A stretch of 55,152 bases of DNA, filler included, from Sluysia triapertura (Eukaryota), in assembly GCA_046118255.1 (NCBI GenBank). It is 4 parts of 4 records of this genome, joined end to end, with 100 filler letters (N's around TTAATTAATTAA, not from the genome) between each part and the next. Parts side by side here need not be neighbours in the genome. Positions count along the whole stretch, not along the records: positions 1 to 11,117 come from JBJNIA010188698.1; positions 11,218 to 23,151 come from JBJNIA010154825.1; positions 23,252 to 35,479 come from JBJNIA010127631.1; positions 35,580 to 55,152 come from JBJNIA010059872.1. The stretch is one strand, 5' to 3'. Within the stretch, counting starts at the first letter, position 1, and the number at the start of each line of letters is the position of its first letter. Position numbers and translations under genes: made by a program. The notes beneath the pieces are model-generated. The model had not been told where the DNA came from, ran no database searches, and saw only the letters and a program-made list of their open reading frames with translations. This document shows, in pieces, positions 1,153-46,827 of this stretch.

Positions 1153-1220
1153 TGATTGGTTATCCAACCAAATCGTGTAAATGATGTTTATATACACGCG
1201 ATTTTGGTTGGATAATCAAT
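1153..1220 (-). promoter_or_regulatory. CCAAT (NF-Y-type) box embedded in an inverted repeat (hairpin 1)
   Basis: Minus strand reads AACCAATCAG. Arms ATTGGTTATCCAACCAAA (1155-1172) and TTTGGTTGGATAATCAAT (1203-1220) have one mismatch. Confidence 0.6.
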
Positions 1221-1251
1221 ATAATTATTACAACAGAATGATTGTGATGAG

Positions 1252-1312
1252 CCATCATCAGTACTGACACAAATCTATTTACAGTAATGAGCAATGTCAG
1301 TGGTGGTGATGG
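1252..1312. ncRNA. Hairpin 2 of module 1 (pre-miRNA-shaped or DNA cruciform)
   Basis: CCATCATCAGTACTGACA (1252-1269) pairs with TGTCAGTGGTGGTGATGG (1295-1312), with two G-U pairs on the + strand and one mismatch. Confidence 0.4.
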
Positions 1313-3519
1313 TAATACAGTGTTTATTTTGATTAAAATTTAATGTTAATGATAATACAAAGATAAAAATAATAATTATAATAATAGCAACAATATGTTA
1401 TTATTATTACCATTATTACAAAAATGCATAAATTCCTTGTAAATCTTCAAAATTCTGTTTTTCATTTTCTTCAATACCTCTTAACATATTTTGAACCAAA
1501 TAAAGTAAAGAATGATAGAATTGAGTATAATAACAACAAAATGTTTTTAAAAATGCATAATTTCTTGTTCATTAAAATTGAACACGAGCTTGCTTTAAAT
1601 TATTTAAATTTCTAACATATTCTAATAAATTTATATGTATTTAAACTAAAGATCCTTAAGTAAAGGTTGTTTTGAATGGGTTTTACGTATATACTTGACG
1701 TTTTATGATATGATAACAGTTCTTTTGTTATGCAGTAAAATGTAGAATGTCAGAGTGAATTTCTAGATAATAACTAATGTTTTTGACTTAAAGCGACATT
1801 TGAACATTGGAATATTATGAGTAAAAGATACATTGAGAAGAGTGTGGTTTAGTGAGTGTGAAAAAGATAAACTACAGCATAACTCTCAGTATATTTGAAA
1901 GGTTATTGTGCCATGTTAACAACGTGATTAGCTCTCTTGCTGCTTTTTAAGTGGTATTATGTTTTGTGCTATTAAGGATTATGTGATAATAATTGATGAC
2001 TTTGAAAGGTTGTAATTGATTCGAAGATGTCGAGTGGATAATTTCGAATGTGATTAAGGTTTGATTGTTATGAATGTAGAGTAACATGTTTTAATTGGAT
2101 CTGTTGATGTAAATTGATGGTATTGTGTATGAATGTGGTTTGTATAATTATGAGATAGTGAATATGACTTAATTTTGGCAGATAAACTGTTTTAGTGAGT
2201 GATGAGAAAATATATATGTGAATGTTAAAGTGTTCAAAAATTAATTTTTAATAAATTTTAGTAGTTGTGAAGGTTGACCACCACACTTACGATGTCAGAT
2301 TTACTCATTTAAGGGCTAACACGTAAGTGGCATGTAAAAATTAAGGTTATTAATAAATGTTTAGCTATTCGGAGCTCAATATACGAAAAAGATTTATTTC
2401 ATGAAATTGGAAATAGTGTCAGAGATTCATTTTTCGTCTTTATTGCTGTGACGATTTAAATAATAATTTTACATAAGATCCGATTAAAAAGGATCTATAA
2501 ACAAAGTTAGCATTTGATTTGGTTATATAACGTGGATTTAAAATTAGATAATAAAGCTAAAGTTGGTCTACTTAGAATTCATTTGGTAAGCGATAGAATA
2601 CAATAGTCAATAAACATAAACAACTAATTTCAATAGTCAATACATAAATAAATATAAACAACGAAATTCTATTAATTTTATTTACAAATGTTATTTTAAA
2701 TTATTTTTTGTTAATACATTTACAAAATGATTTACAAATAAATTAATTTATTTATTAATTAATTTATTATTATTTTTCCTTTACAAATGTACCAGTATTA
2801 AAAAATAAATCAAGTTACAGATAGTTGTATAAATTTCGTGAATTATAAATAAATCATAACATGACAACCGTGACAGTTATAATCATTATGATAAATTTCG
2901 AATTTATTATTTTGAATTAGACGATAGTTTGTTTGTCAAAAACTCATCACAGGATCATTAATAGATAATGGCAAGACGAAAATTCGACAAAAATTAATGT
3001 TCACTTTTGAGTATTAAAAATGATCGGCATAATAAGCATGCATTATCGGCATGCACAATAATAAAGTGGAATTCTCGACTTAGGAATTATCTAAATATGT
3101 AATTTGTGTGAATAAAGAAAAGCTGAATAAGTGAAAATGGACAATGTAAAGTTTCGTAAAATGTAAGTTATTTTAGGTTTTGGTTATAACGAATAGTTAT
3201 TGATATAATTGGAATAAATTATTTACTTGACAAATGATAAAGTTTGCTGCGAAGTTTTCACTTATTTATGTTTTTGGTTTGTGACAGTGGAGGGTATACT
3301 ATTTAAATACACAAAATAGTAAAGACTTCAACAGGAATTTCATCTTTAAGATACCATTACGTTAAATGTTTATTAAGTTTGCTTCAACAACTTACATTAT
3401 AAATTAATTCAAGTCTCTTTACGTTATATATATTCAGTCGATTAATTCTGTTAAACTCATGATTCTTGACCTGACGTATGCAGGTGATATTTTACTTATT
3501 AATTGCATTACCTTCATTC

Positions 3520-4260
3520 CTTAATTTTCTTATTTCTTCTAACACGATTTTTACATGATTCTTGATTCAGCACTTTTGAAAACTTCATCACACAACATTA
3601 CATTCGATTTTATAAACCTAATATACACAGATTCTATTTATCAAAACCCGAGCATAAACCCTTAACATTACATAATCTGTACATCTTTAACATCTTAATA
3701 TTACACAACCACTGCATTCCAAAAACTTATACAACCCAACAGTCAACAAAGTAACCCCATTAACAACACAAAATTCAACTACGTAAAATACATAATATTT
3801 CAAAAGGTATGTTTAAGATCAAACATGATTGAGTTTATAAACTGACACTTTAAAAGTGATAAAAATGAAATTATTTTGTTATTTACATTTTAAATACGAA
3901 TTAATTACTACACTTAAAATTATTAAGTCATTTTCATAAATATATGAAATACATTTTCGATTACTTCTTAGATAACAAAAACATTAGACTTATTTCAAAA
4001 GTTTTACTTAAAACAAATGAGTCACATTCAAACTTAATCCACTCGACTTAACATGTCTTTGCTAACATCATCATCATTATACCATCCAACAGATTTAAGT
4101 TTAAATTCTAAATATACTCACCAATTACTTACAATTTTTAAGTCACAAAATTAATTCTTATTCGAATATGAAAATGACGAATTGCAGCACTTACTTGATC
4201 TAATACTTTACCATTTCGAGTTTTAACAATCATTTCATATATGACTTATTAACTTTATCG
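3520..4260 (-). repeat. Truncated inverted copy of the module body (C/A-rich on + strand)
   Basis: TCACATTCAAACTTAATCCACTCGAC (4022-4047) matches the reverse complement of GTCGAGTGGATAATTTCGAATGTGA in module 1 (about 2029-2053); the strand skew is mirrored. Boundaries approximate. Confidence 0.6.
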
Positions 4261-4692
4261 AGTACTGAAAATGATGCTAGATCAAAATCAGACTGAATGT
4301 TGCATGAAAAACTATCATAGAACCAGGAAGAGTTAGATAATTTAATTTACTTTGAATGCTGATTTATACTTTAATTTATTAATTCTATATAAATTAAATT
4401 ACTTCTTAGGGACTTAAGGTACGACGTAAAAATTTGATTTAAAATAAAATAATTACAAAAGGCTTAAGATCCATTATAAACTTTGAATAAAAGCAAAATA
4501 AATTGGCTGTGATTTATTTTACGAAAAACAAGACGCAAATTTGAACGTGCATGAATAAATACGAAATTGGCATAGTCGATATAGAAATGAATCTTTTTCA
4601 AACATCCAACGGAGCAAGTGATAAGTAGAATGTTACACATGCATTTATTCGCATTGAAATAGTTATCGAAACAATACGACACACCGATGTGC

Positions 4693-5202
4693 TTAGTTTG
4701 TGTGAGTCATGACTTCTTGAGTAAAATAAGCAGGATTACCAGATTCGAACATATCTTCTAGATCTTCATTTGTTATACTTCGTTTGGCAATGTCCATTTG
4801 CTTATTAATTCTATCTCTACAAATATCTCGATAAGGAACTGAAACAGCCATAACTTCGATGAAGTTTCTTGATATAGTCGCATACTGGGTTTTTCTTACT
4901 CGCAAATCCCACGACGATTTATAGGAAGCTTCATATTGTTCAATGCTTTGTTCAATATTTTTTAATTTTTCTTTGTTTCTACAATTACTTCGACTTGAGT
5001 TCTTTTTTGTTTTGATGAGGAGAAGATGGAATACCACTATGTTTATTTTTAACATCTTCTACCACATTCTTATCTGCTCAAACTCTCTTCGCATCTCTTC
5101 CATCTGAGTAAGAAAGCTCAATCATCTACCGCTGTCGATCCAAATTAATGGAATTACCTTGCATGCTGTTTTCATTTTCAATATATAATCAGGTAGATCC
5201 AT
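4693..5202 (-). pseudogene. STX1: Syntaxin-1-like pseudogene (Habc domain and linker), frameshifted, no introns seen, SNARE/TM part missing
   Basis: Pieces in different frames: [34 protein letters not shown] and [40 protein letters not shown]...[21 protein letters not shown]. These match the recalled syntaxin-1 motifs [31 protein letters not shown] and EELEDMLESGNPAIF. Confidence 0.9.
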
Positions 5203-8200: not shown

Positions 8201-8859
8201 AATATTATTGAAGTGAACTGCAGATCAAGCACACTAATCATAAATATACTACACAAACAGAAACAATCTTCACGTGGCATAACAACACAAATCAAACATA
8301 TCTTTATCAATAACAGCCATAATAATGATAACAATATGCGTTGCAATATCGACACAAACGTAAACTAAAATTTAACTTTATCGTTACAATATTGTTGTCA
8401 AAATTGTCATTATTTGGTTGTTTTATCGTATTTCGCCTATTCTCTTATTATCTCTTATCGAGCTTGGTATCCATGGACTCAATTTGTAAATTGTCATTAA
8501 CTAGTACACCTTGTATATTCAATAATATTAATTCAATCTTAAATAATTTAAATTTATGCATTTCAACGTCTCTGACATATCGTTGAGAGATTAGTTCTGT
8601 AAAATAATGAATATCGAAAGATAATAATATTGAATTATAAAAGGTGTCACTGTTACATAAAAATAGGAAGTTTGCATATTTAATAATTTCATTTAATAAA
8701 ACTTAATCATATATTATATATATTAAGTTGATGGAAAGGTTGAACCACCACATTATCATATTTTATGCGAACATGCAGTGATTCTAGAAGAGCCTGAGTT
8801 GAATCTGAATGATTTTGATCTTATCTTAAATTGCCTCAATTTAAAACTATAAAGATATA

Positions 8860-10764: not shown

Positions 10765-10780
10765 ATTATTATTATTATTA

Positions 10781-11259: not shown

Positions 11260-11390
11260 AATTTTCCGATTCCCGACAGAATGATACCAACCTAATCTTG
11301 TAATGATGAAACTATCTGTTATAATTAATAACAGGTAGTTTCATCATTACAAGATTAGGTTGGTATCATTCTGTCGGGAATCGGAAAATT
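11260..11390. repeat. Near-perfect 63-bp-arm palindrome
   Basis: 11260-11322 is the reverse complement of 11328-11390 with one mismatch; 5-nt spacer AATTA. Confidence 0.95.
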
Positions 11391-11793: not shown

Positions 11794-12225
11794 TTAACTT
11801 AAATGGCAAGAAAAAATAAATAGAATTAATATTTACAAACCGAAAAATGGGAAAAACCAAAAAAATTATCATCAATGTTATTTTCAAAAAAAATAGTGCA
11901 TGTGGGCTACATTTTCGTTTATCGTCTCATTGGTTTGCCAGTTGATTTCTTACCCATTTCGTTGCCTCCATCGCTTCGATGTTGGCATTTTTTACCGGCT
12001 CTTTTGGATTCTTGATTTTCATTGATTCTTGAACCATTTCAACAACCTGATTTTATATGAAAACTAGTATTTCCTAATTCATATTCTGCAGAACTTGTAT
12101 TTATTAATTTTTAAATATTTTTATCCTGAATCTCCAAATAGTCCTCCAATAATCGAAAATGTTGAATTAATAAATTACTTTTACTTTAGAATTTTGACTT
12201 TTTGAGCTTTCTATCAGTAAGTGTA

Positions 12226-12456
12226 CAGTAGACTCCCGTATAACGCGATTAATATGTTACGTGTTGTATGAAATCGCGTTATAGGAAATCGCGTTGAACG
12301 AGGAAAAACTTGTATAACGCGAATGATGTTTGCATGTAAAAGTGAATTCCCGTATTTTATTCTATACCGCGTTATACGGGAATCGCGTTATATGAATAAA
12401 GTCGTCGCACTTCTTTTAACGCGTTGTATAAACTCGCGTTATACGGGAGTCTACTG
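12226..12456. mobile_element. Tc1/mariner superfamily (pogo/Tigger-like) MITE, 231 bp
   Basis: Perfect TIR CAGTAGACTCCCGTATAACGCGA, TA target duplication on both sides, and internal CGCGTTATA subrepeats. Confidence 0.92.
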
Positions 12457-14449
12457 TATTTCTGTTTCATTAATGTGTGTTTCTTTTTAAATTCATTAAC
12501 AATGTATTTTACCAGCAGTTATTTTTATCATTACCTCAACGAAATCATCAATGATTTTAAAATTGTAAGTTTATGATATTTTTTGTGATTTGTATAATGC
12601 ACGATATAATTCTTAGTACGCTAAACTACGATCAAATTTCATCTTTTCGAAATTACTTGTTTAACAATTGCGATTTTATTAAGTTTGACTAACATTTTTT
12701 CAAATTACACAATATTTTATTCAAAATATGTTATTCCTTTTAGTTTAAAAATAAACGCATATCATCGGGATATGCTTATGTAAAATCTAAAACGAGTATT
12801 TATGTGGTGTGAAAATGTTTGTCGTGCTACATTATTTATTACAGTTTGATCACTATGATTTTTAAATATTATTAAATAATGTACGTTTAATTTTCGCGTA
12901 CGATAGTTATCACATTGAGTTAGTCAAACCTGTTTATGCAGGTAATAGAGACACTATAAAAAACGCATAAAATATGCCGAAACATTGAAAAAAGCTTTAA
13001 AATATTTTGTTTTGGAAGAAAATCGCACAAAAATGATTTAACTCTATAAAAATGGCAGTTACTTTTCAAGTTTAGCTATTTTAGAGAATAATTTATTAAA
13101 ATTCTACTTTTGTTATCTGTTGTCCAATTTTTATCAAAACTATTAATTTCTGTAATATTTTATAATTTCCGTTTGAGTTAACCCTGCTTTCCCATCACCA
13201 CCTTGGTACCAAAATATTTTATTTAAGTAATTTTTAAATTTATTATTTTGTAGTAATTTTCATACCTAATGTATCTTCCGACACCACATAGGCCTACAAT
13301 TTGATATCTTGCGTTCTTATTTAAGTTAATTATAAAACAATAATTAAGTAGACATGTTTATTATGAAAACAACAAATAAGTATTGTATTTATTTAATTAT
13401 TAACAGTTTTTTCTTTCATTCTTTGTAATAATTTTTGGAGAACATTTTTTATTTCTTAGTAATGCAAATTTACGTGCCATGACATAAAATCAAGAGCAGT
13501 ATATAGAGATATTTTGTGCGTGATTTAATGAAAAGAAATAAAACCTTTATTTATAATAATTTAGCTTAAAGTAATTGGCATGTAGTATGGTATTCCAGTT
13601 TCTATTTGACGCATAACATATTCATTTTTATAAATGATTATAATCAAAAGAAATCAATTAGTCAAGACTTATAACACTTATTCGGATAAAACTTATTCGT
13701 GTAAAATTAGAACTTATTATAAAACTTGTAATCTTTTAGTTTATATATATTCGTGTATAAACTTAGTGAATAATGACTTATTTGACTTAAGGAACGATAA
13801 AACTTATGGAATAATCGTTTATAGTCTTTAAAACTTATAGCAATCTATACAATTTATAGTTTAGGATACTTTTGCTTATCAAAACGTAATTGGGTTATCT
13901 TTATAATTTACCTTCTTGTTCAAATGAATATCTTTATTTTATTTTAATGTATGCTTACGTTGCTGGTCCTCGCTCTGGGCACCAGTTATAATATGTGAAA
14001 ATTCAATAAGTTGTTATAATAAAACTTGATTATTATATGTTAAACAATTTCTTTCTAGTTGTAATATGCAAAATTTTTTGTTTTTTGATTATTGCTTTTT
14101 ATACTATGTAAACACTTTTTTTACTAAGTATATTATTCTAAACTGAAATTATTTTATTTTATTATTTTATAAAACTGTTGTGTATTATAAAGTGAGCTCT
14201 CTATGATACTGGACTTACTCACTAAATGGCCAGTACATAGATTTGCAACGTGAAGAAAAGAGATTAAAACTGGAGGTAAATGTATATAATTGGTTTATGT
14301 ATATTTTTAATTAGATATTACAATTATTACTAGTATAATGATAACAAAATTTTTTGAATGACTTTATTAACTACACAAAAGAAAAATATTGATGATACAC
14401 TTATTTAAACGATAATAAAAATTACAAAGTAAATATTAATAATCGAAAA

Positions 14450-15909: not shown

Positions 15910-17144
15910 TAGTACAAATTCTCTGTGGATAACATGGTATCATCGATGGATCCGAACAACATTATGTACTAGAGTGTGGCTTCCACTACCGCTAGAATTG
16001 CTTTATATTCTTTGAGATTTTAATAAGAGAGTCCATTATATATGAATAAAAATTGATTTGTCTTATGCGATTCAAAATGCGATTGATTTCCTTCCTGATT
16101 TTGGCTAATTGAATTTACGATATCTGAAAATAAATAAAGTTAAATAATAAGAATAAAATACTTGCATTCCATAGTGTGAAAAGCCCATAAAATATTGTAA
16201 ATACTGTTATAAAGGATTTAAAATAAACCCATTTTAAATAAAATTAATTTACAATACCTAAAATATATAAAAATTCACTTTATTAAATATCTAAATATTA
16301 ACTTTACAATAGAATCCGTTTCACGGAGATCATCGAAGTTGTGTTGGATTTTATAATCTTCATCGTCACGATATTGTGTGAAGTTGTGATGATATTCATT
16401 GTATTGTTTAAGAAAATTTTTGACACTATTACTCTCTTTGATGTTGTCATCATAATCATTGTCTTTATCACGTTCGCCATACTCATTGTTGTCTTCAACA
16501 TGTTTGGGGTAGTTGTGACCATCTTTAACCTTATATTTGTCGTCTTGATAGTAATCATCACTGTTGACATAGTTTCTAACTTTAAAACTAATGTTTTTGT
16601 AATCATCGTTATCATATCTTTTAACTTTAAGATCAAAGAATTTATAATCATCATTGTCATATCTTTTAACAAAAAAATCAAAGTATTTATAATCATCGTT
16701 ATCACATCCTTTAACTGAATGATTCTGAATGAAATCGTTACTCACTTCGCAATAGCTTACGCAATTATTATCATTTTTGAAATGGTCGAAAGAATAGCCA
16801 TCATTTACATCATGATTTTTATTGACCTTGTAACTGTTAACAGTTTCGCCATTACTTGCTTGATATTTGAAATGATTGTTATTAATTCTATCTTTAACAT
16901 ACTTGAAATAGTTGTGATAGTCTCTAGAACTAAAAGAAAACTCGTTATTGTTACAAACTTAAAAACTGTCATATTGACTTTTACCGTAGAGGTTAGCATC
17001 TTCAATTTCATAATAATAAATATTGTAAGTGATGACTTTGCTAATATATTCTTTACCATCCTTGTTGTTTTTATAACAGTGTTTAACATCAACTTCATCC
17101 TCGTAAACATAGTTATCATAATACAGTGCCTTGTGATATAACAT
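15910..17144 (-). pseudogene. Module-2 cargo gene: D/N/Y/K-rich repeat protein, paralogue of the module-4 cargo, with short 3' introns
   Basis: ORFs 16959-17144 and 16275-16745 are in the same frame and separated only by one TAA (16959-61); the interval translates open. The 14-aa repeat KRYDNDDYKYFDxxV is shared with 45078-45662. Short GT..AG introns follow, and a last exon starts near 16124 (DIVNSISQNQEGNQSHFESHKT) and contains stops. Confidence 0.65.
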
Positions 17145-17299
17145 TTTAGGATTAGTAATAATTAATTGTACTAAAAATCGTTAATTGTTGTTCGTCTCAT
17201 TTATTATGTTGTTTTCATTCCCAAATGAGAAATTATAATTGTGAAATTTTTATAAAAACTTTTTTGTATTACAATTGGTTGTCAAATTTTTCGTATCAC

Positions 17300-17539
17300 G
17301 ATTGGATTGGCTGTCCAACAAAAAATGATTTTGAGATTTTTAATACTACTACTAATTTGATTGAACAGCCAATAATCTATTAATCAACTGTGATGACTAC
17401 CATCATCAACAGTGACATAAAATTATAGTTGTATAGCAAAAATGTCGCTGTTGATGATGGCAGTAACTCAGTTGATTGAGAACTGCTTAATTACATTTTT
17501 ATTTCGATCAATTTATGTTAAAAATGATGATAATAACAG

Positions 17540-17598
<59 letters not shown>

Positions 17599-17787
17599 CA
17601 TTAATCAAGAAAATTGAATAAAGTCTTTGTTTAGTTCTTTAACATAACCTTTTCTTTGATTTTCTTGATTTTCTGCACATATTTTGAATAATATAAGCTT
17701 AGAATCTTTAATTTACTTCTTTTGAATTAGTTCGATGCTAAGAGAATAGAATTGATAAATTATATAAAAATTAATATTAGAATGTTG

Positions 17788-17834
<47 letters not shown>

Positions 17835-18615
17835 TGTTATTATTATTATTGTTGTTGTTGTTGTTGTAGATAAACGCATAAAATCTTTGAATGCTTGCAA
17901 GATCTTACTTTTATCTTTATATATCGCCATCTAAATTGTAGAAATGAAGAGAACTTTCGGCTTCGTGAATTTATAGGGGTGAAGCTTTTCTTTGTGATTT
18001 TACGTACTTCTTTTGCTGTTTTAAGTAATTTTGTATGATTGTTTCTGATATTTTAACTGAAATAATTTTTTGGCTGAAATGTTATTGAAGTGCAGGTAAT
18101 TATGAACTAAATACTTGGAATAATGTAGACGTTAAAGTGAGTGATATGGTGTTGGGCTATTAAGATTAAGTAGTATCGAACGTAGATTTATGGTGTTTAA
18201 TTTATTGTGGAAGTATTTGTTGATTGATTATGAATATGGATGTGATTAAATTGTTTGAGATGAAAGGATGTAAAGATAAAGATATTTTGAATGAATTTTT
18301 AGTGTGTTTTGATAGTTTAAGTTGTGAGGATAAATGTTCTTAATGTGAATTGATGGTATATTTTATTAAGAATTGATAGACTTTAGGTGTTTTGAAAAGT
18401 GAAAATTTGTTTTTGTAGATTTGAGAGAAATAAGATATAAAAATAATTGTGATGAATTTTACAAGGTTGTGGTATATTGTTAAAGGATATAATTTTGGTT
18501 ATGATGCATTAGTTTTCACAAGATTTTTTAAAAAAATATGTAATGTATATTTTAAAGATTTGTGAAATTTTGATATGTTTAAGGTGAGATTTTAGTTATT
18601 AAGTTGGCCACCACA
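17300..18615 (+). repeat. Dispersed module copy 2 (microsatellite/box segment duplicated)
   Basis: Hairpin 1 at 17306-17373, hairpin 2 at 17382-17477, (TAT)n at 17545-17600 and (TAA)n/(TTG)n at 17789-17866, AAACGCATAAA at 17872, G/T body, end AGTTGGCCACCACA at 18602-18615. Confidence 0.85.
17382..17477. ncRNA. Hairpin 2 of module 2, pri-miRNA-like geometry
   Basis: Upper stem CTACCATCATCAACAGTGACAT (17397-17418) / ATGTCGCTGTTGATGATGGCAG (17442-17463), plus lower stem AATCAACTG / CAGTTGATT. Confidence 0.45.
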
Positions 18616-19682
18616 CAGGTATTAATAAAATAAGAAAAATAATCTCAAAAGTGAATACGAATAGACGCAAGCAAATACGAACTAGCAAGTCTGATATAAA
18701 TATGAAAATGAATATGAAAAATAATACATTGAAAATATATTACCAAAATCATATGTACTTTTATAAAGAGACAACTGGCTACACAACCACAGTATAAAAC
18801 AGAATTTGTGGAATTGAATTGGTTAGAAAGGATAATAATAATTATAGAGAAGCAGATTATTGTAAAGATGATGCAATAGAATTTAAAGGAGGAAAACAAT
18901 AAAAATAAAAGACCGCTATTCAGTGCCTTACCAGAACTTGAACTGACTTCGATGAAATTATTGAAAAGGAAGATATAGTTATTATAACATTTTTAACGGA
19001 ATATTGAAATAATTATATTCGAAAAATGACTATTAACAGTAATAATTAATGAAAAATGAGATAAGTAAATTTTCTAAAATAATTCACTAGATCATGATAA
19101 ATTATTAACACGTGATAATCTCAAATTTTATTATTGTTAATGTTATTTATGTGATTAACAACATATGTTATACAATATGAATTATTGAAAGTTAGATATT
19201 TCGATATATTCAACTTTATCGAAAGTAACAAATACAGTTTTCTAATTTTACAACATGTATCATTTAATATAAAATGTCACATTATAGGAAAAGAGAAAGA
19301 GAAAATACGGACTGTAGTGTCGCAACTATACACATCATTTTTGTTGTTAAACACACCCATTAATAAACATAAACATAAGTATAAATATAATTCACTTCAT
19401 CCATCTCATAACATGATCATATTTTACTCGACTTATAAATTAATTTATTTATAAATTAATTATTGTTGTTCTTGTTTGTTGTGGTCGTAAGGTGTTTATA
19501 AAATTTAAAATTATTGTCTTCATTAATACAAAATTTACAATAAATCTTTTATTTGCAATTTTATAAACATTTACTTTAAAATAAAAATTCAAATCTTGAT
19601 TCAAAAATTTTAAATTAAAAATGTCAAAATTAAATACACTAAAAGTTTTATTTAATATAAAATTTTCTAATTTAGGATTATG

Positions 19683-21126
19683 TCATAAATATCTAATATC
19701 TTTATTGTCTGATGTCCTTACTTCCCTACCTAAAGTAAAAACAATAGTTATGTTATCACTATAATAAAAATAAATAAAATTTACATTTATAAAGTCACTA
19801 AGGTTGGCATTATTCGACTGAACAGGAGCGCTAACCGATCGCATTAAACTTGTGAGTCTGGAAAAATGGTCCAAGTTATCTTGATGTAAATATGGATCCG
19901 TCATTTGACCAATAGTGTGAACATGTAGACAATTTCTTGGAGAAATCGCTTCCATAAGGACATAATACTATTCCAATACGCCGATTAGAAATTGGTATAC
20001 GTTTGATTGTATTATAATAGAGGTACATTTGACTAGGAGAATTACTTTCCGATTGCGCGTTACGTTCGCATGATTTGTAGTAAGAACTGTGAGAAAGATT
20101 CTCGTTTTTCACTTTACTTTTTGATATATCATAATTTTGTGACATTGATTGGCAATGTTTTGTATTGATTATAGACTTAAATATCATCCTTTATCTCTTC
20201 CATAGTGTTGACAAGAATTAGAGATTGAAACTATACTCATCATCACTGATTATAATAGATTGCACATTCTTAGACTCATAATCAATATTAAGATCTTTGA
20301 ACGCGTAAGTGGAACTCTTGCTCAAATACAAGTCAACTAAATTTAACAAATCTATTAGAATATTCAATTGTAGCTTACCAAAACATCTATTTTACAAATT
20401 TGACTGTGCTAATATCTCATATCTATATTTGCAAGAGAATAATGACTTATCGTACCATGGGCATGATAATTGTTAGTTTCAACTCCAAATCTAAAAGATT
20501 TGTGTTCATCAAAATCCATCCGCTTTATTTCTTGACTGGACCTAATTTATGTTTGTTTTTACATGAGACTACATAACCAACACCACAATTGGTTTCTATT
20601 CTATATTCATGGTGTTTAAATGCTATTATGAAACCATGAAACTTTTCTTCGATCTTGTATTTTTATTCACTATTTCTGTACTTTTCGATCACACTGTTCT
20701 GTGTCTGAGTAACACATATTTGAAGTTTTTATTTTTACATTGGTACCTTATTATTTTACATTCTGTTTCTTTTTTAGCAATTACATTAGTCTGGCGTTTA
20801 GTACAAGTAAAAATATTGTTATGTTCAGTACTGACATGATGATGATCTTTTTTAATTGTTTGTAAAGGAAGTATATACTTTAAATTCTTTTTATCAACAG
20901 CTTTATGATTAATGACATGATCATATTCGGAAATTGAATTTAATAGCTTTATTTCAAATGTATTTATCTCGTTATCGTTTAAAATTAATATATCTTCACT
21001 AATAAGTTCGCATTGAAAATTTTGAGTCATTACTTTAAATTCATCATGGAAATTTTTAGTAATAACTTTTTGAAAATTCATTATCTTTTTTGTGTTGTCA
21101 CATAAAAATTTTGAGAGTATTATCAC
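19683..21126 (-). pseudogene. Module-3 cargo gene: decayed protein with two CCCH-type zinc-finger remnants
   Basis: Chain of broken ORFs (20689-21126, 19876-20187, 19683-19955). Finger 1 is CPWYDKSLFSCKYRY..(shift)RY*HSQI at 20406-20463. Finger 2 is LCPYGSD..(shift)RNCLHVHTIGQMTDPY at about 19890-19965. Confidence 0.6.
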
Positions 21127-21189: not shown

Positions 21190-22580
21190 TGGATTGGTTG
21201 TCCAACCAGAGATATAAAAATAATAAGGAGAATCACTTTGGTTGGACAACCAGTAATAATCGCCAAAACAATTTAAGTGACAGTTGAAGCTACTATCATT
21301 GTTGATGAGAATTTATACATGGTGACCAAAAATGTACAAATAAAATTTAAAAATTAAAAATGATAAATATAAAATGATAATAATAATAATAATAATTTAA
21401 TGTTATTATTATTATTAAAACTGCATAAATTCTTTCTTTGTCTTGAAAAATATGATCTTACTTTTGATTCTTTTCTTTCTCAACATGTTCAACTTATATA
21501 AACAGACGAGCCTTAAAGAATTGTGAGTTCATGATGTTTCAGCTAAATGTTATTTAATTTGGATAAGGTTTTAAGGTGTAATAGTGATGCTAACGTTTTA
21601 AGATAATGCGTAAAGCGTTTAAATATAAATTTAACTGCTGCTTTCCGGTTTTAAGTGAAGATAAATTTAGGTTTTCGTTATTTTGAAGTAATGTAAATGT
21701 TTTATGTGGATATTAAAATACATCTTGATGTTTTGAAATGAAATAATGTTTTTGGCTGAAGATGAACTTGAGTATTAAAAGGTAATCATTTAAATATCTT
21801 GAAATAGTATAAATATTTAAAATGGATTTTAAATGTACATTGGTTTTTTGCATGAAAGTAATGTTTAGCTCTTCGGAGGTGTGACTTAAAATGCATTAGG
21901 AAGAGTATAGTTTAATGAATGAAAAGAAGATAGCTTTTAGTATGTTCAAAAAGATGATTGTTCTGTGTTGAAAATATGATTTATTTTCTTGCTATTTGTT
22001 AGGTGATCTTGCCTTTTGTGATGTTAGGCATTAAATGATAACAGATCATGAATTTAGGATACATGAATTGATTTGGGAGTATCTGGTAGTTGATTTCGAA
22101 TGTGGTTGTGGTTGGATTGTTATGACATGACGAATCAAATATTTTTGATGAATTTTTTAATGTAATTTGATGGTTTTGAATGTCGTTGTGGTTTGTATGT
22201 TATGAGATTGTAGATTTAAAATGTTTTGAAAAATGAGAGTTGATTTTGGTGGATCTGCAAAGGAATAAGATATAGGAACAGTTTTGACGAATTCTACAAG
22301 GTAGTTGTGTGTTGTTGAAAAGGATAGGATTTTGGTTATTTTTGTATTGAACTGCGAATTTAAAAATGTGAGTTGTAGGTTTTGTGAGTAAGTGTTATAT
22401 TGAAACATATGATTTTGATTATGTTGACATAGGGTTGTGTAAAAAAAGTTTTTAATAAATTTTTGAAAATGTATATTGTATATTTTGAAGGTGTGTGGTT
22501 TTATAATTTTTTGAAAGAAAATTTTTAATAAAATTTGTTGATACCGATATGTGGTTTCAATGAAAAAGCCTACTATCACA
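21190..22580 (+). repeat. Dispersed module copy 3 (hairpin 2 mostly deleted, terminus degenerate)
   Basis: Hairpin 1 ATTGGTTGTCCAACCAGAG (21193-21211) / CTTTGGTTGGACAACCAGT (21236-21254); (TAA)n; AAACTGCATAAATT at 21418; GATCTTACTTTT at 21454. The body aligns by eye to copies 2 and 4. Confidence 0.85.
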
Positions 22581-22671
22581 ATTGAAATTTAAATCTGTAT
22601 CAATGCGATCCAAGGGCTTGTTTACAGGATTTTTATAAAAGAATCTTGTTAAAGTAAAATATAATATAGTA

Positions 22672-22741
22672 CAGCGATGGCGAACCTTTTTGACAAGTGG
22701 GTCACTTGAAATCGTTGCGTGGGTCATAGGTTCGCCATCAC
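22672..22741. mobile_element. 70-bp hAT (Buster-type) mini-element with two facing TIRs
   Basis: CAGCGATGGCGAACCT ... AGGTTCGCCATCAC, with internal GTGGGTCA twice; no 8-bp TSD visible. Confidence 0.7.
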
Positions 22742-33830: not shown

Positions 33831-35479
33831 ACAACAAAAAGGAGGAATTAATGTACAAGGGTCTGCTTGTGGTAGCATATGAAAATGTATGCGTCGAATA
33901 TAAACAGGAATATAAATTTGCAACTACTTTATGCTAAATTATTATAAATTATTATTTAACCATGCATAGAATACCTCTATATGTCGCTCCTGAATTAATT
34001 TGGTGGTACGAGCATTTACAATACACAGAAGCAAAAAAAGGCTCAATGAATTACTGAAACAATTGAAGAAAATAGTGTATAAATATATTTTATTTTGAGC
34101 TTCTTTTGATTGATCATGAACATGATTTTATAAGCTAAGTTTCAAAATGAATTTAAATAATTTGTAGGCCTGAGGGATAGTGCAAAACACGTTTTGTCCG
34201 TAAATTACTACAACAAAATAAGTTTGAAAAAAACTAACAAGATAAATTGGAAAACAAGATTGACTCAAACAGACTGTTGTAAATTAAAATCTTTTAAAGT
34301 AATTAATGGTTTTGAAAAAATTGATCAAGCTGACCTAAACAAATAGCTGATGAAAGTAAGCAGACTTATGGAAATGACTGCAATTTTTGTAAAACAAGAT
34401 AGTAATCATCGTACTGGAAATTTAAATATACATTATTTAATTAAAAATACTGGAGATCAAGCTGCAATAGAGTATTTCCCTACTGTAGGGAAATCATATC
34501 AAAATATCAATGCTTCACAAAAAAATATCTCATACATACATAGAACATTAAACAAAGTACCAGATTCATTCAAAAAACAAACATAATCATTGTATATAAT
34601 TGACATGAACTATAGTTATTGTTATTATAAATCAAATCGTATTAAAATATATAATAATTATTGTGATTATTGTCATATAATAACTTTTATAAAAACACCA
34701 TAATATCATCAGATCATCATGTTAAAATATAATAATGACATCGTTATCATTATTACTACTCTCATCTTTATCATCAACTTTACTTATTCTTATTTTCGTC
34801 TGAATTTATATATATTTATGTATATTTATGTATGTGTGTATCTAAAAGGTATATGTCGAAAAAACAGATGTAGTACTAATATCTCCTAAGATACAATAGA
34901 ATCAAGTAAGTAATCAAAGAAGCAATAAATGAAGAAGGACCGAAACGATTACCGTGTGTTAAGCCTGAAATGCCAAAAGATCAATCACCGTGTGAAATTG
35001 ATGAAAAATTAGAAGTAAATCCAGCACAAAATCATAAAACAAGTTAAACAATGTCAGTATTACTAATCTTGGAAGTAGTTGGGCAAATAGTTTAGAATCA
35101 TCATCAGTGTCATCAACGTCACCAACTTCAACCAACCTATAATTTAACACTATTTCTACCACGATTTTTGTGTTTACCTATTTTTACCCAAAAAATTGTA
35201 CATTTAGATCTAGTATGAGCTAAAAGAAAATTATAACAATAAATAAAATTAATAATTATACATATATTGAGAAAAAATGGTTAAAGTTAAAAAAAATTTT
35301 AATAAATTTAATAAATATTATGTATGGATTTGTCGATCAATAATTTATGTTAAGCAGAAAGATGAGACTTTATTTATCAATTATGTCAAAAGTTAAGTTA
35401 TGCTTGAAAATTTTTCTGAAATATCTAAAAACATTGAATTTTTAATAGTGGATTATGAAGAATTAAAAAATTTTCTGGA

Positions 35480-35579: not shown

Positions 35580-35665
35580 AGCTATCAGCCCCGTCTAACA
35601 ATTTCATTTTTTTAAATATATTCAATTATACTACTTGGCACTTTTTAGGCCTTTTAACCCAACAT
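35580..35665 (-). repeat. Second copy of the tRNA-like locus (5' flank plus first bases), truncated by the gap
   Basis: Reverse complement of about 40063-40146 (AAAAGGCCTAAAAAGTGCCAAGTAGTATAATTGAATATA...GTTAGACGGGGCTGATAGCT). Confidence 0.9.
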
Positions 35666-38600
35666 TATTTATACCTACAATTTCTTTGCTCACATCGTTG
35701 ATAAACATTTTTAGTGAAAAAAATTTAATGAGCTATCGGCTCAGATTTATTTCAGTTTGATTGCCGAATATATTAGTTCTATCACTCATAGAATTACCTT
35801 ACACAAAAAACGAATAAAATATTTAATAAAATAAAAAGACTTGAGACAATATAGATAAAAATGAATTTTATGAATCAAAATAAAAACCTTATGGTAAAAT
35901 TGCTGATTCAGAACCATCAAGAGCTTTACGATGATTTTTTCTAATTCCATCATGACTTTTCGACATTGTTTTTGGTCTATATTATAATAATAATGCTTCT
36001 ACTTATTCTTATACCACAATAAAGTAGTCTCTTCTTATCTTTGTCATTTAAATTAAGATTTAAATATTTATTCATCTGACAAATCTTGGCATGGGAGGAA
36101 CTTTAAGTTCTTTATCAACATGATAATCTTAGAACGTTTAAGCACGTGGATTATTATAATTATCATATATGTAATTTTCTAATTTAAATTTTTTAATCTA
36201 TTTTTTAACAAAAAACCGATCTTCTAATCTAGTATTAACATATTTTTTCGTTATAAGTTGTTTATTAAGTGGATTGTCTAACATTTTGTGTAATCTCTCA
36301 CCAAATTTTGATTTTATTATTTTTACTACTTTAACAGCACAAACACAACAGCACAAGCATCTAATGTTTTATCTCTAGTATCTAAACATATGACTTTTAT
36401 ACGATTAGTAATATTAACATGAATTAAAAATATTAAATCTACTAATCTAACATGAGATTTAGCTATAAAATTAACACGATTTTTAGGCAGATTGCAATGA
36501 AAACCGAAACATTTATCAATATTAGACTGGCTTAGTTCACTTAATGACATATATAATCATCTTCAATTTCAAATGAAAATTATCTAAATTATCTTTAATA
36601 ATTCTGTTAACATCTTTTTTAACAAGAATACTCACAGTAGCTAGAAATTGATATACACCTAAATTTCTGATAAAACCTGCCCGAAAACTATGTATATCAC
36701 GATAGTTTAACATAAATTTAGTACCATCTGAATCTAAACTGCATGTCGTTGCTGCAGTATATTCGGCTCTTTGTATTCGATTAAATTCATATATAATGTG
36801 CAAAAAAATTTTGTATAGTAATCTTTAAACCTTTACGACAATATACAATTGCATTATTGTAACGTCTTTTATGGTGTTCATTGCAATACATATATTACGT
36901 GGTGTAGATATCTTTTTGAATGTTTTCTAATTTTCATGCGTAAACATACTAAACAATTTTTACTGTGTTCTAAAGACGAACAGTCAACGCTATATTACGT
37001 TCTATCTTTTTGTTCTAAACTTTCAAATATGTCAGAACAATTTAATACACGTGAAATCTTAAAGCACTATATCTGATATCCGTTTTTTTGAATCAATCAA
37101 TTGAAAGATCGTTCATAAGAATTGAATTTTTAGAATTGTACACTTCAAAAAATGCATAATTTTTAATTTATAATTTAATTTTACTAGGCCTAAATGCCCT
37201 AACTTTCAGATAAAATGCTTTCGCTTCCTGTGTTTCGTTTTAGAGGTATTACATATTCTAAAATTAGAAAAATGTTGTGCATCATTATTTTGGACAATAT
37301 TACAATATACTTTTTTTAATAATGTAAATTTATTTGTTTGTATATATAATTAAAACTCATATTATAAAATTTCAGAGTATTTTTTAAGAAAACTAAAAAC
37401 GGTCGTTTGACCCCGTCGCGCCATATTAAGTACTATACTAATGTTTCCAAAATTATATTACAAATAATTTTTCACGAACATCTGCTCTTGAAAAATTAGT
37501 AGTATTCTTCATTAATACTTTATTAGTATTCTCATTAATATGTTTTTCTTATTTAAAAACACGAGTTAGTTTTTCCCATAAAGTTGATTTCTTACTGTTA
37601 CTGGAATTAATCTAATATATTCTCGTGATTTATTAAGTTTCTCTTTATATGGATTATGTTGTAATAAAAGCGTTATAAAAAATTGACATTATTGTTTAGT
37701 TACTTCCAGTTCATGTTCAAGTTCTTTAATTTTATTTTTCAAGGTTGTTGATATGGATGAGATTAAGTCTGAAAATGTGCATTTATTGTTTGATGAAACT
37801 GACATTTCTGTTTCTGAATCTTCTGTTATGAACATTTTGCTTTTGTATACGAGTAAGTTGTCAATGAAAATAAAATGGCAAGGTTTAAGTGACATTCTTG
37901 CATATTTGGTTCTGACTCTTCAATATTAAAACTGAATGTTTGACATTGAAAAACTTTCTTCTTTTTTTTATTTTAGAATCTAACCTGAGTTTCTATTTTT
38001 ATGATTTTTTTCTGTAAATATAAACTGAATATTACAATAATTTCCAACATTTCCAACATTTCCAACATATAAATGAGTGATGACTATCAATATGCGTTAA
38101 AGACTGTGTAAAATGAAGATTTGTTTACATCAGAATCACTTTCTACTAACTTGAAAGAAACATTTTGTCAATCAAATTTTTGAATACTGTAAGCTCGTAG
38201 CATCGAACAGAACTAACTAAATAATATTGTGTTTTAAAAATTGGTTTGGAAATATCATTATCATTGTTAAGTATGAAAACAAAATCACATTAAAAAGTTT
38301 TAAGATGTTAAACGTAAAGAAGATAGTGAAATGTTACGTGATTTAAATTGAGAATTTCTTGTTTATACTGTGGATAAAGAAAGATTTTGGATTGAATGAG
38401 TTGCACCAGCATACTATTTAATCCTAAAACAGACATTATTTGTTACAAATTACTCAAGCAATATAATCATAACGTAGATTTATAATACTGCAAATGAAGG
38501 CATCTTTACACCATTTCGAAACGAAGATTCTACGGAGATCGTTTTACATCTTGACAGTATCGTAACTAGTAGTTTGAATATTTGGATAAACGCACACTCC

Positions 38601-38738
38601 GTGAAATTCCAGTTTCCAATTCAGGCTTGATATTATCTAATCTTGTTTGTTGAATACATTATACCTGGCTGGGAGTTATTTTAGTAACAAAACTAACACA
38701 AGAAATGTCTATTTATCCGAATTTTAGTCTATTTTTAA

Positions 38739-38856
38739 CTCATTACTGGCCACTGACGTAGTAATACGTCATTTTTTGTCCGAAATCCAGTAGCCGTGAA
38801 CGTAGTAGTACGTTTTTTGGCAGAATAATTAAGACTTTTTAGCGGCCAGCTATGAG
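38739..38856. mobile_element. TTAA-flanked (piggyBac-type) MITE, 118 bp
   Basis: TTAA on both sides; TIRs CTCATTACTGGCC / GGCCAGCTATGAG; internal ACGTAGTARTACGT twice. Confidence 0.8.
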
Positions 38857-40135
38857 TTAATAATTTTCACACATAAATAACTGCATAATTATTACAATAC
38901 TTTCAATAGTTTTACTAAAGTATTATCTATTTGTCTTCTCATGATTTATAAAATAAATATTATTAATATTAATATTATGATTATTATTAAGGTAATAAAA
39001 CCAATTTTTACTTCGTTAAACATCGAAAAGAACCAAATAAATGGTTGTGCAAACAATTCAGCCACAGTCGGAACTGTATGTACACAATTTACGATATTTC
39101 TAGTTTGATAGATGACAATAATCGATTTTTATTTGCTGGTAATTTTAAAATAGGAATTAATGCTAATGTACTGGCGTATATGGAAAAATGGTACTACAGC
39201 CGAACTAAAGTCGTTTATGAGAATTTTGATGATAATTTATTTATTGATTTAGAATTTTATAAAAAATTAGACATAACGAAAAATCATTTTTAGTATACAT
39301 GTGCATATATATATGTAATTTTATTGTATTTATTTAATTAAATTTATTTGTAAATTTTTAATTTTGTACAAAATTAACATTATGGATTTAAACTTTGGGA
39401 AATGTATTTCTTCTGTTCTGGATATGAAACGTAAAATTCAACTGGCAAAAAATGCAATAATTTTTGTTGAAGTTATGAATTTCAATTTATAAATAATACG
39501 ATTTTTGGAATGATAATGTGATAACAATAATATTAAAATAATAATAATAATAATCTAAATAATAATGAATTTAAAAAATACTTTAAAGTACTTTAATTAT
39601 TAATTATTAAAGAACCTTTCAGGTCATTAAATTCAAAAAAATAAGTAAAGTATTGTTAGGGTTTCTTCAATTTATAAAGTACTTACAAAATAGAATAAAA
39701 ATTCGAATATGTCTGTAATGAACGATCCTATAGGATTTACTAGATCAAAGTTATGTGAATATTACAAACTTTAGGAATTACTTGGATTGATATACTAAAG
39801 TCTGCTTCCTCTACTTTTATTCTGCTTTTTTCAATAGCGTTCTTTTTATAATTTATGACTTCTACTGCTTTCTATGTCCCTATGATTCAAATATTAAATT
39901 ACCACAGTACTTAAATATGTCTATTGCAAATTTGTTTTGAAATATTACTAAGACATCTTCAAATTTTTCTCTACAAGACTCTAACACAACTAAAAGTTTT
40001 ATTTCACTTTTACATAAAAAATACATAAATAATATGCTTTTAAAACAATCAAATACGTTGAATATTGTTGGGGTAAAAGGCCTAAAAAGTGCCAAGTAGT
40101 ATAATTGAATATATTGAAAATGAAATTGTTAGACG

Positions 40136-40208
40136 GGGCTGATAGCTCAGTGTTAGAGCAGTCGGACTGCGCAGACGATGGTCCCGGGTTCGATCCCCGG
40201 TCAATCCA
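40136..40208 (+). tRNA. tRNA-Ala-derived gene or pseudogene with non-canonical anticodon arm
   Basis: Acceptor GGGCTGA/TCAATCC with G3:U70 and an A discriminator; D arm GCTC/GAGC; perfect T arm CCGGG-TTCGATC-CCCGG; TTTT immediately after. The anticodon arm pairs poorly and has one extra base. Confidence 0.75.
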
Positions 40209-43699: not shown

Positions 43700-44423
43700 T
43701 ATTATTTCTAATATTTGTACCAGTATATGCAGCATTAATACACATATCATTACTTTGGCATCCGTGGTGGTTAAATAGTTTGACCCATATAATAATAAAG
43801 TGATGTGCTTATTACGTAATTGACTATTTAATTCATTAATTTAAATTTTAAATTATTATTATTAGTTATTGCTGCTATTTTAAATTTATGCATAATATTA
43901 TTATGTTACACGAAAGATAAAATAAATAGGAAAATTTTAGTTCATTACATTCTTCTTACTTTATTCGAGTTTATTATTTTTTTAAAATATCGTGTACTTT
44001 TAATCCTGCACGATCTTATTAGAAGTTTTACACATGATAGATTAGTTTTAAAGAATTCTAATTGAATATAAGGTTCTGAATACTGAAAGGTTAAGTTCTT
44101 CGAAATTGAATATCCAATTCTTTATTCTTAATTTTGTTCATTTGTTGAATTATTTTCATGTGAATTGGAGAATAACGATTTTATTTTGGTTCTTGAATAA
44201 ATATTCCATCAAGTCTTTCTGTACACTCTTTCAGTAGTCTTTGTAGACACGGTATTTTATGAGTCGTGTTAAGGGTGTACAATAGGTTGATTTTAAAGGT
44301 CTTGAGTTTTATTCAAGTTTTGAGTTGAATAAGGTATATATTTCTTGATACGTATTGCTTTTAATGGATTTTACAGTGATAAATATGTTTAATAAATTTA
44401 TGTTTTACGGTTAATCCACCAGA
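43700..44423 (+). repeat. Possible highly degenerate module copy
   Basis: TTA tract, ATGCATAAT near 43888, a G/T-leaning stretch, and the end TTTAATAAATTT...GGTTAATCCACCAGA, which resembles the module-1 end. Confidence 0.35.
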
Positions 44424-44736
44424 ACTTATCTATTCACACTTTTAGTTTCACTTCTAACATCTTACCACTTACAATTAATTTTGTCTCGTTTTTGGTTGTG
44501 GTTGAAAATTTATATTATGCGTATTTAAATTAACTTGCTGGTGAAATTTACGAAATATGCTATATAAACTAATTAAAGGATTATCTTTTTCTTTTGCCTT
44601 ATAATTATGAATGATTCTTTTATTTTTTAGTATTAAAAGAATATAACATCCAAGAAAAGATTTATTATTTACACATATATTTAAACAAATGTTTTCATAA
44701 TGTCCTTGAAGGCGAAAAACCTAGTCTTGCATACGA

Positions 44737-45674
44737 TTACGGGAAGGCCATATTCTTTACCTCTCGTTCATTACAGTTCTTTTTATTTTCTGTGCTTGTA
44801 GTATTCCATACCAATGGGTCTTTCAATAGTTGAGTTATTCTAGAAGATTGCCATTTATGCTTTTGTCTTGAGTATTCCTGAGGTTCCAGTTCATATGTAA
44901 TATGTGCGTAGCGCCAAGGACTCCGTTTTTGATACATAGACCATATTTGTCTGTATAGTATGGACACATCGCAGTAAAATTCATTTTATACTCATTATAT
45001 TTGTAGAAATGATTACTGGTATATTCAACTTTAATAGTATCGATACTTTTGTTTAAAGAATCACTGTCTTTATAGTATTATCCACTCTTGTAATAACCTT
45101 TATCTATAACGTTAATATTTCTGTTATCATCATAATCGTCAATATAACTTTTAACTTTAAGATCAAAGTATTTATAATCAACATTATCAAATCTTTTAAC
45201 TAAAAAATCAAAGTATTTATAATCATCGTTATGATATCTTTTAGCTAAAAATTCAAAGTATTTATAATCAATATTATCATATCTTTTAACTTTAAGATTT
45301 ACATCGTTGTTATAAAATTTAACTTTAAGATAATCATGATTGTTAAGGGTTTTAGCTTTGAGATAATTATCAATGTGATGACTTTTAACTTTAAGATCAT
45401 CATAGTTGTCATGACTTTTAATTTTAAGATCATGATCATAGTTATGAGTTTCGACTTTCAAATCATCATGATTGTGATGACCTTTAGCTTTAAGATCATC
45501 ATCGTTGTTATGACTTTTAGCATTAAGATGATCATCATAGTTATGAGATTTTACTATAATATTAGCGTCATTGTTATGAGTTTTCACTTTAGGATCAACG
45601 TCGTTGTTATAAAATTTGACTTTAAGATCATTATCGTTGATACAACTTTTAAAAGAGTTCATATCTAAACTTCG
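44737..45674 (-). pseudogene. Module-4 cargo gene: N-terminal 11-aa/14-aa tandem repeats plus C-terminal CCCH finger, frameshifted
   Basis: ORF 45078-45662 carries K(S/T)HNxDDxLKV repeats (33 bp), then KRYDNxDYKYFxxxx repeats (42 bp). A splice acceptor TTTTAACTTACTTGTAG lies in frame just upstream. The finger reads TAMCPYYTDKYGLC (shift) YQKRSPWRYAHITYEL at about 44888-44975. Confidence 0.65.
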
Positions 45675-45787
45675 CTACAAGTAAGTTAAAATATAATTGT
45701 GTAAGAAAAATTCTTTTCTATTTTTACATAGCTGTTACTAATAATAAATTTTTTTGAAAAAAAAACAATGTGTGCATATCATGACCA

Positions 45788-46827
45788 TTGATTGGTCATC
45801 CAACCAGAGGAATTGAGATAAAAGCTACAGTTATTTTGCTCTGATTAGATGACCAGTAAAAATAAAGAATACAGTTAATAGTGAATGTACTGATTTAGAG
45901 ATGAACCACCATTCATGATGACATTCATTTGTACATAAAGATTATTTATGTCAGTATGAATGGTGGTAATTTGTTCATTTATGTATTTAATTAAAATAAT
46001 TAAAATTAAAATGTTAATGATAATAATAATAATAACATTTAAAATAGTGATAATAATAATAATAACAAAATATTATTATTATCATTATAAACGCATAAAC
46101 TTCTTTATCTTTATTAAACATGATCTTACTTTCATCTTTACTTTTGCTGAACATATTGGAATTTAAAATGAAGAAACACGATCTGTTGTTATATGTATGG
46201 TTTTTCTTATTAATTTATTAATCTTATGATACCTCAGTTTAATGTTCTAGATGAATTGATGTTTCTGTCTGAAAATGTTATTAAAACGTATATGATTTTG
46301 ACGTAATTATTTTGAAGTAGTGCAAGTGTTGAGAAGAGTGAAGAATGTTAACTGGTGTTTTGAAAGAAAGTCATGTTTGCTTGTTGGAACTTAATAATAA
46401 ACGATCGTACATTTAGAATATTTGGGTTTTTTGAAGTAATATCGAATGTAATTATGATTGAATTGTTAAGAATGAAAAATAAAATGTTTTGAATGATTTT
46501 TGCTTTAGTTTAATGGTTTGAAATGTAATTGTGATTTGAATGTTATGAGATGTCGAATTGTTCAATGGTACTCCTTGTTATGAGATTGTAGGTTTAAAAT
46601 ATCTTGAAAAGTGAATGTTTATTTTGATAGATGTGAAGCGAAATGAGGTATAAAAGCGATTGAGATGAATTTCGCAAAATTGTTATATGTTGTTAAAAAG
46701 CTTTATTTTAGATATGATAGATTAGTTTTAAATAGGTTTAAAATATATAAAATGTATTTGGAAGTTTATGCTTTTATATGTTTGAATTTTTGTAGATTTG
46801 ATTAAGATTGGTGAGTTAGCCACCACA
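45788..46827 (+). repeat. Dispersed module copy 4
   Basis: Hairpin 1 at 45791-45857, hairpin 2 at 45901-45978, (TAA)n, AAACGCATAAA at 46089, GATCTTACTTT at 46122, G/T body, end GTTAGCCACCACA at 46815-46827. Confidence 0.88.
45901..45978. ncRNA. Hairpin 2 of module 4
   Basis: ACCACCATTCATGATGACAT (45905-45924) / ATGTCAGTATGAATGGTGGT (45948-45967), with a possible lower stem ATGAA / TTCAT. Confidence 0.45.

Follow-up and report, generated by a model that had tools for sequence, protein, structure and literature searches.

Mirrored base changes between the arms of a CCAAT-bearing hairpin in a large flatworm repeat, at its promoter-like end

Here we analyse a dispersed flatworm repeat in a 55,152-nucleotide (nt) stretch of the Sluysia triapertura genome (assembly GCA_046118255.1; four records joined end to end), hereafter the window, in whose coordinates all positions are given. 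Four copies of the repeat open with a short inverted repeat, hairpin 1, one arm of which carries a CCAAT box and faces an open reading frame (ORF) on the minus strand, and in these copies the two arms have repeatedly changed in step. This arm-to-arm mirroring in the promoter-like end of a large repeat is real and modestly significant, and an ordinary candidate cause is at hand. In the reading that we favour, and to which we give about an even chance, a gene-carrying mobile element has its promoter arm in hairpin 1, and template switching makes the two arms match again now and then. Compensatory changes are commonly taken to prove that an RNA or DNA stem is functional; those of hairpin 1 are sited on the degenerate flank of the CCAAT box, are unbiased by strand and are gone in a decayed copy. 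With this pattern and its many copies, the repeat family lends itself well to a natural test between copying and selection. If it is true that the stem is selected, the hairpin would mark the recognition signal of an undescribed gene-carrying flatworm mobile element.

Coupling of the two arms of hairpin 1

With the arms fixed at 18 bp for all pair counts, 63 of the 72 positions of hairpin 1 in the four paired copies are Watson-Crick pairs, four are G-T pairs on the plus strand, four are G-T pairs on the minus strand and one is neither. The triplets that follow ATTGG (TTA, CTG, TTG and TCA) find their Watson-Crick partner in 12 of 12 cells, and all three triplet columns have changed on both sides, by transitions throughout; a fourth mirrored column is present in copy 4 only. 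The positions and triplet letters agree with a first-pass annotation of the window, including a G-T pair adjoining the triplet in copy 1, and so does the lack of conservation of the loops, which are 26–32 nt long and whose similarity, direct or inverted, does not rise above that of shuffled sequences in any of the six pairs of copies. A scan of the whole window yielded 11 strong short inverted repeats, six of which belong to the repeat, as its hairpins 1 and 2.

Pairing each arm with its own partner scores 63, the best of the 24 possible permutations (p = 1/24, the floor with four copies). When arms were simulated as evolving independently from one palindromic ancestor, 0.6–1.0 mirrored cells were obtained, compared with 5 of 72 observed (P 0.0002–0.003, star tree); granting just three independent events, the simulated P is 0.02–0.07. 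A covariation check on the four copies gave a score reached by 5 of 500 shuffles, in a pair-count measure that by its own text is not a probability, and double changes were absent in five of six slid controls of this measure. From the best-of-24 pairing, the simulation and the shuffled and slid controls, we conclude that the arms of hairpin 1 are coupled, on modest evidence. The annotation had proposed that pairing is maintained, either by selection on a stem or by arm-to-arm gene conversion, and that a plain transcription-factor site would not need this. The coupling and the second statement are upheld; as to cause, the data lean to copying between arms over selection on the stem.

A single dimeric protein, either a transcription factor or a transposase-like enzyme, might use the arms as paired sites, which would then change together as its preference shifted between subfamilies. 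The internal dyad TTGG-N4-CCAA present in each arm fits this idea, and motif pairs derived from MITEs (transposable elements of the miniature inverted-repeat kind) are germline promoters in Caenorhabditis (CERP2/CELE2; bioRxiv 10.1101/2022.01.21.477252; this and the other publications below are cited from the available parts of their texts). These pairs were spread by transposons, as may be true of hairpin 1, and they act as promoters in double-stranded DNA, but they consist of two unlike motifs 10–30 bp apart that are bound by HIM-17, whereas the arms of hairpin 1 are mirror images with a CCAAT box. In addition, mirroring is seen at the degenerate bases, where all four copies differ, the span of hairpin 1 is not fixed (62–68 bp), and a common protein would not follow the neutral bases of each copy. 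We consider this explanation very improbable.

The gene-facing arm as a candidate NF-Y site

The two arms seem to differ in how much they vary. Among the four paired copies, the gene-facing arm shows 17 pairwise differences in 108 positions (16%) and the far arm 30 in 108 (28%), and the CCAAT pentamer is intact on the gene-facing arm in five of five copies compared with one of the four paired copies on the far arm. Of seven changes on the gene-facing arm five have a mirrored counterpart, and of 12 on the far arm likewise five, leaving two and seven unmirrored departures, respectively.

The gene-facing arm reads GATTGG-Y-Y-R in all four paired copies. Measured against the NF-Y consensus CTGATTGGYYRR (PMC3507159), the flank YYR is found in four of the five copies, TGATTGG in three and the final R in none. 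Because the triplet variants of the four paired copies all fit the YYR of the NF-Y flank, this arm likely behaves like a protein site and is a candidate NF-Y site, although it differs from an ordinary CCAAT box, which is a single site lacking a mirrored partner arm, and misses the last consensus base. The CCAATCA described in the first-pass annotation is borne out in copies 1 and 4, while copies 2 and 3 have CCAATCC. Its position, given there as 60–100 bp upstream of a start, compares with 92, 187, 112 and 129 bp from hairpin 1 to the next ATG in copies 1 to 4, and the −60 to −100 rule is counted from the transcription start (PMC3422339). The tissue-specific promoters of planarians are enriched for CCAAT and for A/T trinucleotide repeats (PMC10558129), and NF-Y binds some long terminal repeats (LTRs) and is required in planarian germline stem cells (PMC3507159, PMC3422339, PMC11802806).

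A minus-strand ORF of at least 100 amino acids (aa) starts 92–187 bp from hairpin 1 in four of four paired copies, whereas only 3.3% of the positions in the window have such a start on the facing strand within 200 bp. The ORFs at copies 2 and 4 are related to each other, those at copies 1 and 3 are unrelated. The ORFs that face the repeat are short and decayed. In Pfam searches with 17, 15 and 4 translated pieces the hairpin-adjacent ORFs had no match except at copy 4, which gave a CCCH finger below threshold and a weak match to a recombinase (E 0.005, below the cut-off), and an Atlas search with the copy 2 ORF returned no usable match. An inverted fifth copy of the module, which the first-pass annotation had missed, spans about 48900–49550. 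It keeps the CCAAT arm while its partner arm matches at only 9 of 18 positions; hence not all loci have their matching renewed continuously.

The module and its family

Hairpin 1 opens a module of 1.1–1.4 kb in which it is followed by hairpin 2, hairpin 3, a G-skewed body and an end (Table 1), and its left edge is the limit of homology between copies. Hairpin 2 has 19-bp arms and a 23-nt loop in the three complete copies. Mirroring is found in this hairpin too, for 8 of the 17 pairwise differences in its left arm. In one copy it is extended into a significantly longer perfect stem (one of 14 anchored tests; reached by none of 500 shuffles), part of which may be ancestral. Hairpin 3 is an (AAT)n/(ATT)n microsatellite in four of four paired copies. 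The repeat ends in CCACCACA, the end motif TTRRCCACCACAY being present in three of four copies, and aligned bodies differ by 25–51%.

The repeat family is clearly large. A 6.5-kb stretch with copies 2 and 3 has 5525 look-alike contigs in one public run, 4119 of them less than 95% alike, and summed contig depth is about 2300–3000 at the hairpins and reaches up to 26000 within the body, whereas an exact long contig next to them has a depth of 18, depth not being equal to copy number. This run, which may be the source sample itself, is the only one that was found to contain the sequence, with no RNA run among those listed, which does not bear on expression.

An ATTGG at 5389, upstream of a syntaxin-1 fragment, is followed 3.4 kb to the right by a good end motif (8741–8753) and may belong to another copy of the module, the sixth and far older; the part between the two has only weak profile support (E ~2). 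The best 24 of 29 matches of the syntaxin fragment are flatworm proteins, at 60–64% identity, which marks the host as a flatworm.

Table 1. Coordinates and properties of the repeat copies and neighbouring features in the window
Feature	Position	Strand	Properties
Hairpin 1, copy 1	1155..1220	.	17/18 matched; TTA/TAA; CCAAT arm is the left one, towards the minus-strand ORF
Hairpin 1, copy 2	17306..17373	.	15/18 matched; CTG/CAG
Hairpin 1, copy 3	21193..21254	.	16/18 matched; TTG/CAA
Hairpin 1, copy 4	45791..45857	.	15/18 matched; TCA/TGA
Hairpin 1, copy 5 (module inverted)	49470..49546	-	CCAAT arm kept, 2 mismatches to arm pattern; partner decayed, 9/18
Hairpin 2, copy 1	1252..1312	.	15/19 matched; 23-nt loop
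Hairpin 2, copy 2	17400..17460	.	18/19 matched; 23-nt loop; Watson-Crick stem runs outward to ~17382-17477
Hairpin 2, copy 3	21289..21334	.	Left arm and loop only; right arm mostly deleted
Hairpin 2, copy 4	45906..45966	.	17/19 matched; 23-nt loop; same copy-specific changes on both arms
Hairpin 3, copy 1	1370..1418	.	(AAT)n/(ATT)n inverted microsatellite
Hairpin 3, copy 2	17523..17557	.	Region duplicated again at ~17778-17920
Hairpin 3, copy 3	21381..21417	.	(AAT)n/(ATT)n
Hairpin 3, copy 4	46044..46088	.	(AAT)n/(ATT)n
Body, copy 1	1650..2286	+	GC skew 0.49; ends in TTGACCACCACAC
Body, copy 2	17920..18616	+	GC skew 0.62; ends in TTGGCCACCACAC
Body, copy 3	21500..22520	+	GC skew 0.59; no end motif seen
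Body, copy 4	46160..46828	+	GC skew 0.53; ends in TTAGCCACCACAT
Body remnant and hairpin 3 remnant, copy 5	48900..49395	-	Inverted copy
ORF facing copy 1	692..1063	-	123 aa; no Pfam match; ATG 92 bp from ATTGG
ORF facing copy 2	16275..17161	-	Broken, repeat-rich; homologous to copy 4 ORF; no Pfam or Atlas match
ORF facing copy 3	20689..21081	-	130 aa; no Pfam match; ATG 112 bp from ATTGG
ORF facing copy 4	44835..45662	-	Broken; CCCH-finger-like piece, Pfam zf-CCCH_UNK E 8e-05, below curated cut-off
ORF facing copy 5	49667..50523	+	Broken; ends C-x9-C-x6-C-x3-H with in-frame stop; no Pfam match on pieces
Syntaxin-1 fragment	4693-5058	-	Pfam E 2e-10

Arm-to-arm copying and selection on folding as possible causes

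In the reading that we favour, the repeat would be the end of a gene-carrying mobile element and the gene-facing arm an NF-Y (CCAAT) promoter site used as double-stranded DNA. In active lineages, selection would keep ATTGG and TCCA on the gene-facing arm but leave the three bases of the flank free to drift as long as they stay YYR. The far arm would be rewritten by a copying event to match the current gene-facing arm, and would decay independently between such events and once a copy is dead. Because copying resets the far arm to the gene-facing arm, drifted flank bases would look like compensatory pairs, and folding of the stem need not be selected.

Template switching in yeast homogenises arms of at least 7 bp across spacers of up to 70 bp (PMC8604942) and occurs in promoters as well (PMC13100816); it can yield apparent compensatory changes in RNA genes, where stem extension is a listed signature (PMC8794818). 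The repeats affected in yeast and in ribosomal RNA genes have short arms, spacers of less than 70 bp and matching two-sided changes, sometimes with longer stems, and some lie over transcription-factor sites (PMC13100816, PMC8604942, PMC8794818). Hairpin 1 resembles them in its 18-bp arms, 26–32-nt loops and 5 mirrored cells out of 72, but the module differs in having three neighbouring inverted repeats within a dispersed animal family, in showing no clear loop inversion, and in that we infer the mechanism.

The mirrored changes could also be taken at face value, hairpins 1 and 2 being selected RNA stems, either microRNA-like on the strand opposite the ORF or acting as a leader or packaging signal on the ORF strand. 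Compensatory changes are the classic RNA signature, the hairpins span 61–68 nt with folding z-scores of −1.6 to −11 on both strands, and hairpin 2 has 13–14 lower-stem pairs on the plus strand in three of three copies, with wobble pairs 4:1 on that strand. Wobble pairs of hairpin 1, however, split 4:4 between the strands, and hairpins 1 and 2 together give 8:5 (p = 0.58), so that the check for G-U strand bias suggested in the first-pass annotation reveals no bias. In animal pri-microRNAs the stem is long, and the 22-nt duplex sits on top of a lower stem; the lower stem of hairpin 1 was significant in none of eight strand tests, and that of hairpin 2 in two of six, both in copy 2 and covering both strands. 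Moreover, the better-folding strand is the plus strand in copies 1 and 3 and the minus strand in copies 2 and 4, no shared sequence able to start a plus-strand transcript lies left of hairpin 1, and runs of at least four T inside the hairpin 1–2 span, found in three of four copies on each strand, argue against an RNA polymerase III cassette. Over the whole window Rfam has one match, a tRNA elsewhere, and none to the module, and no arm 8-mer occurs in eight supplementary files of a planarian small-RNA paper (PMC5671611), which possibly concern another species. We regard selected RNA stems as distinctly unlikely.

Stem selection, one of the two causes put forward in the first-pass annotation, is thus less favoured: hairpin 1 has no wobble bias and no lower stem, its unmirrored departures lie mostly on the far arm, and pairing is lost in copy 5. 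The mirroring does not demonstrate selected folding, and the data lean to copying; selection on pairing may nevertheless act in the mobile phase of the element.

Several points weigh against episodic copying onto a promoter arm. The mirroring and asymmetry results rest on four paired copies only; the excess of unmirrored departures on the far arm (seven of nine) is not significant (p = 0.18), nor does any other arm asymmetry reach significance with this number of copies, and some of these departures are shared by several copies and could be inherited instead of reflecting decay. The final consensus base (R) of CTGATTGGYYRR is T in all copies, copy 5 reads ATG where the other copies have the YYR triplet, and the YYR fit could be explained by transition bias alone. 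Loop inversion has no clear case: two of nine pairs come near p 0.05, both in hairpin 2, whose loop is partly self-complementary. To judge by the fixed 23-nt loop of hairpin 2 and by the succession of three inverted repeats, symmetry or spacing may matter in itself. In the window we found no far end of the element and no enzyme belonging to it.

Relation to known mobile elements

The HINE/DINE-1 elements, which are non-autonomous Helentrons, are, like the module, non-coding dispersed repeats that have a variable body, one edge with an inverted repeat, and a microsatellite, which in the module is internal and lies at hairpin 3; they also occur at gene-duplicate breakpoints (PMC4067079). By analogy with the ends of such elements, the hairpins may be selected single-stranded DNA or cruciform signals for the mobilising enzyme, with the CCAAT box built into one arm. 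This would account for three serial inverted repeats next to a microsatellite with a sharp far end, for the mirroring of hairpin 2 as well as hairpin 1, for the lack of G-U strand bias, as a DNA stem predicts none, and for the loss of pairing in copy 5, which is expected once a copy is inactive. Against it, drift is greater in the far arm than in the near one, and no Rep/helicase or transposase is linked to the repeat in the window. The arms of 18–19 bp and loops of 23–32 nt also contrast with the 12–15-bp subterminal inverted repeats (subTIRs) and 5–10-bp palindromes of HINE (PMC4067079). Neither arm recurs near the CCACCACA end: in the three copies with the end motif the best 12-mer match in the last 120 bp is 7–9 of 12, and none of 12 tests gave p < 0.2. 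The HINE-type stem-loop 8–35 bp from the 3' end has no counterpart, as no shared stem precedes CCACCACA in four of four folded ends, and the flanks beyond it (CT, CA, TC and TT) do not appear T-rich at that end; HINE insert at TT or T-rich sites. Read in the opposite direction, hairpin 1 itself could be a HINE-type terminal stem-loop. Altogether we judge a selected single-stranded signal unlikely.

We do not file the module under HINE/DINE-1, because we found in it no second subTIR and no shared terminal stem-loop; its longer arms, three inverted repeats and facing ORFs are further differences. A composite of these views also appears unlikely to us, namely that an unclassified flatworm element which captures genes has, in its series of three inverted repeats, a selected hairpin signal of flexible sequence, and that one stem doubles as an NF-Y promoter for any gene piece on the element, acting as a fold in movement and as a duplex in transcription.

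Other classes were tried as well. By the tests made, the module is not a solo LTR or a terminal-inverted-repeat DNA transposon, because it has no second end, no second copy of the body, inverted or direct, being present per unit, and no target duplication, the flank of hairpin 1 and that of the end having been compared in three of three copies. By eye, no primer-binding site or purine tract adjoins either edge of the module. Two inverted end motifs with two mismatches near copy 4, one at 43762–43774, 3 kb left of the copy 4 end, are at chance level (7 found compared with 4.1 expected). The two-arm pattern has no match among viral contigs, and 12 metagenome loci that match it are unrelated (GC 34–66%, no match to the body, middle or end profiles, best head match E 0.02); complementary triplets occur in four of these 12 (L006, L008, L011 at 1501–1568 and L007). 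The available parts of PMC6431247, PMC11410931, PMC11802806 and PMC5671611 do not describe the element. As far as listed entries and the openings of abstracts show, there is no account of it in the planarian transposon and promoter literature, most subscription papers and repeat libraries lying outside the search, and literature hits to the arm strings concern unrelated topics only.

Other features of the window

Just past the body of copy 3, a transposase-like reading frame (22671–23150), which resembles hAT/Buster, lies beside short inverted ends (22676–22739) and has no Pfam match. A C-terminal fragment of a DEAD-box helicase (47752–47982; Pfam Helicase_C E 2.5e-06) lies within a decayed gene. 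The tRNA-like sequence (40136–40208; Rfam 43.4 bits) is preceded by 90 bp that recur inverted at 35580–35669 with 93% identity, adjoining an assembly gap. An intact ORF of 236 aa at 25254–25964 shows C-type-lectin-like words by eye, with no Pfam match and no homologs among 275 candidates.

The window also contains a near-perfect palindrome at 11260–11390 (63-nt arms, 98% complementary, 5-nt spacer), a short inverted repeat at 38738–38857 that is unrelated to the module (17-bp arms, ~85-nt spacer), and a small TA-flanked element with inverted ends at 12224–12458 that resembles a Tc1/mariner MITE. A second dispersed repeat is present in inverted orientation at 13120–13625 and 33879–34328, with 64% identity over 500 bp.

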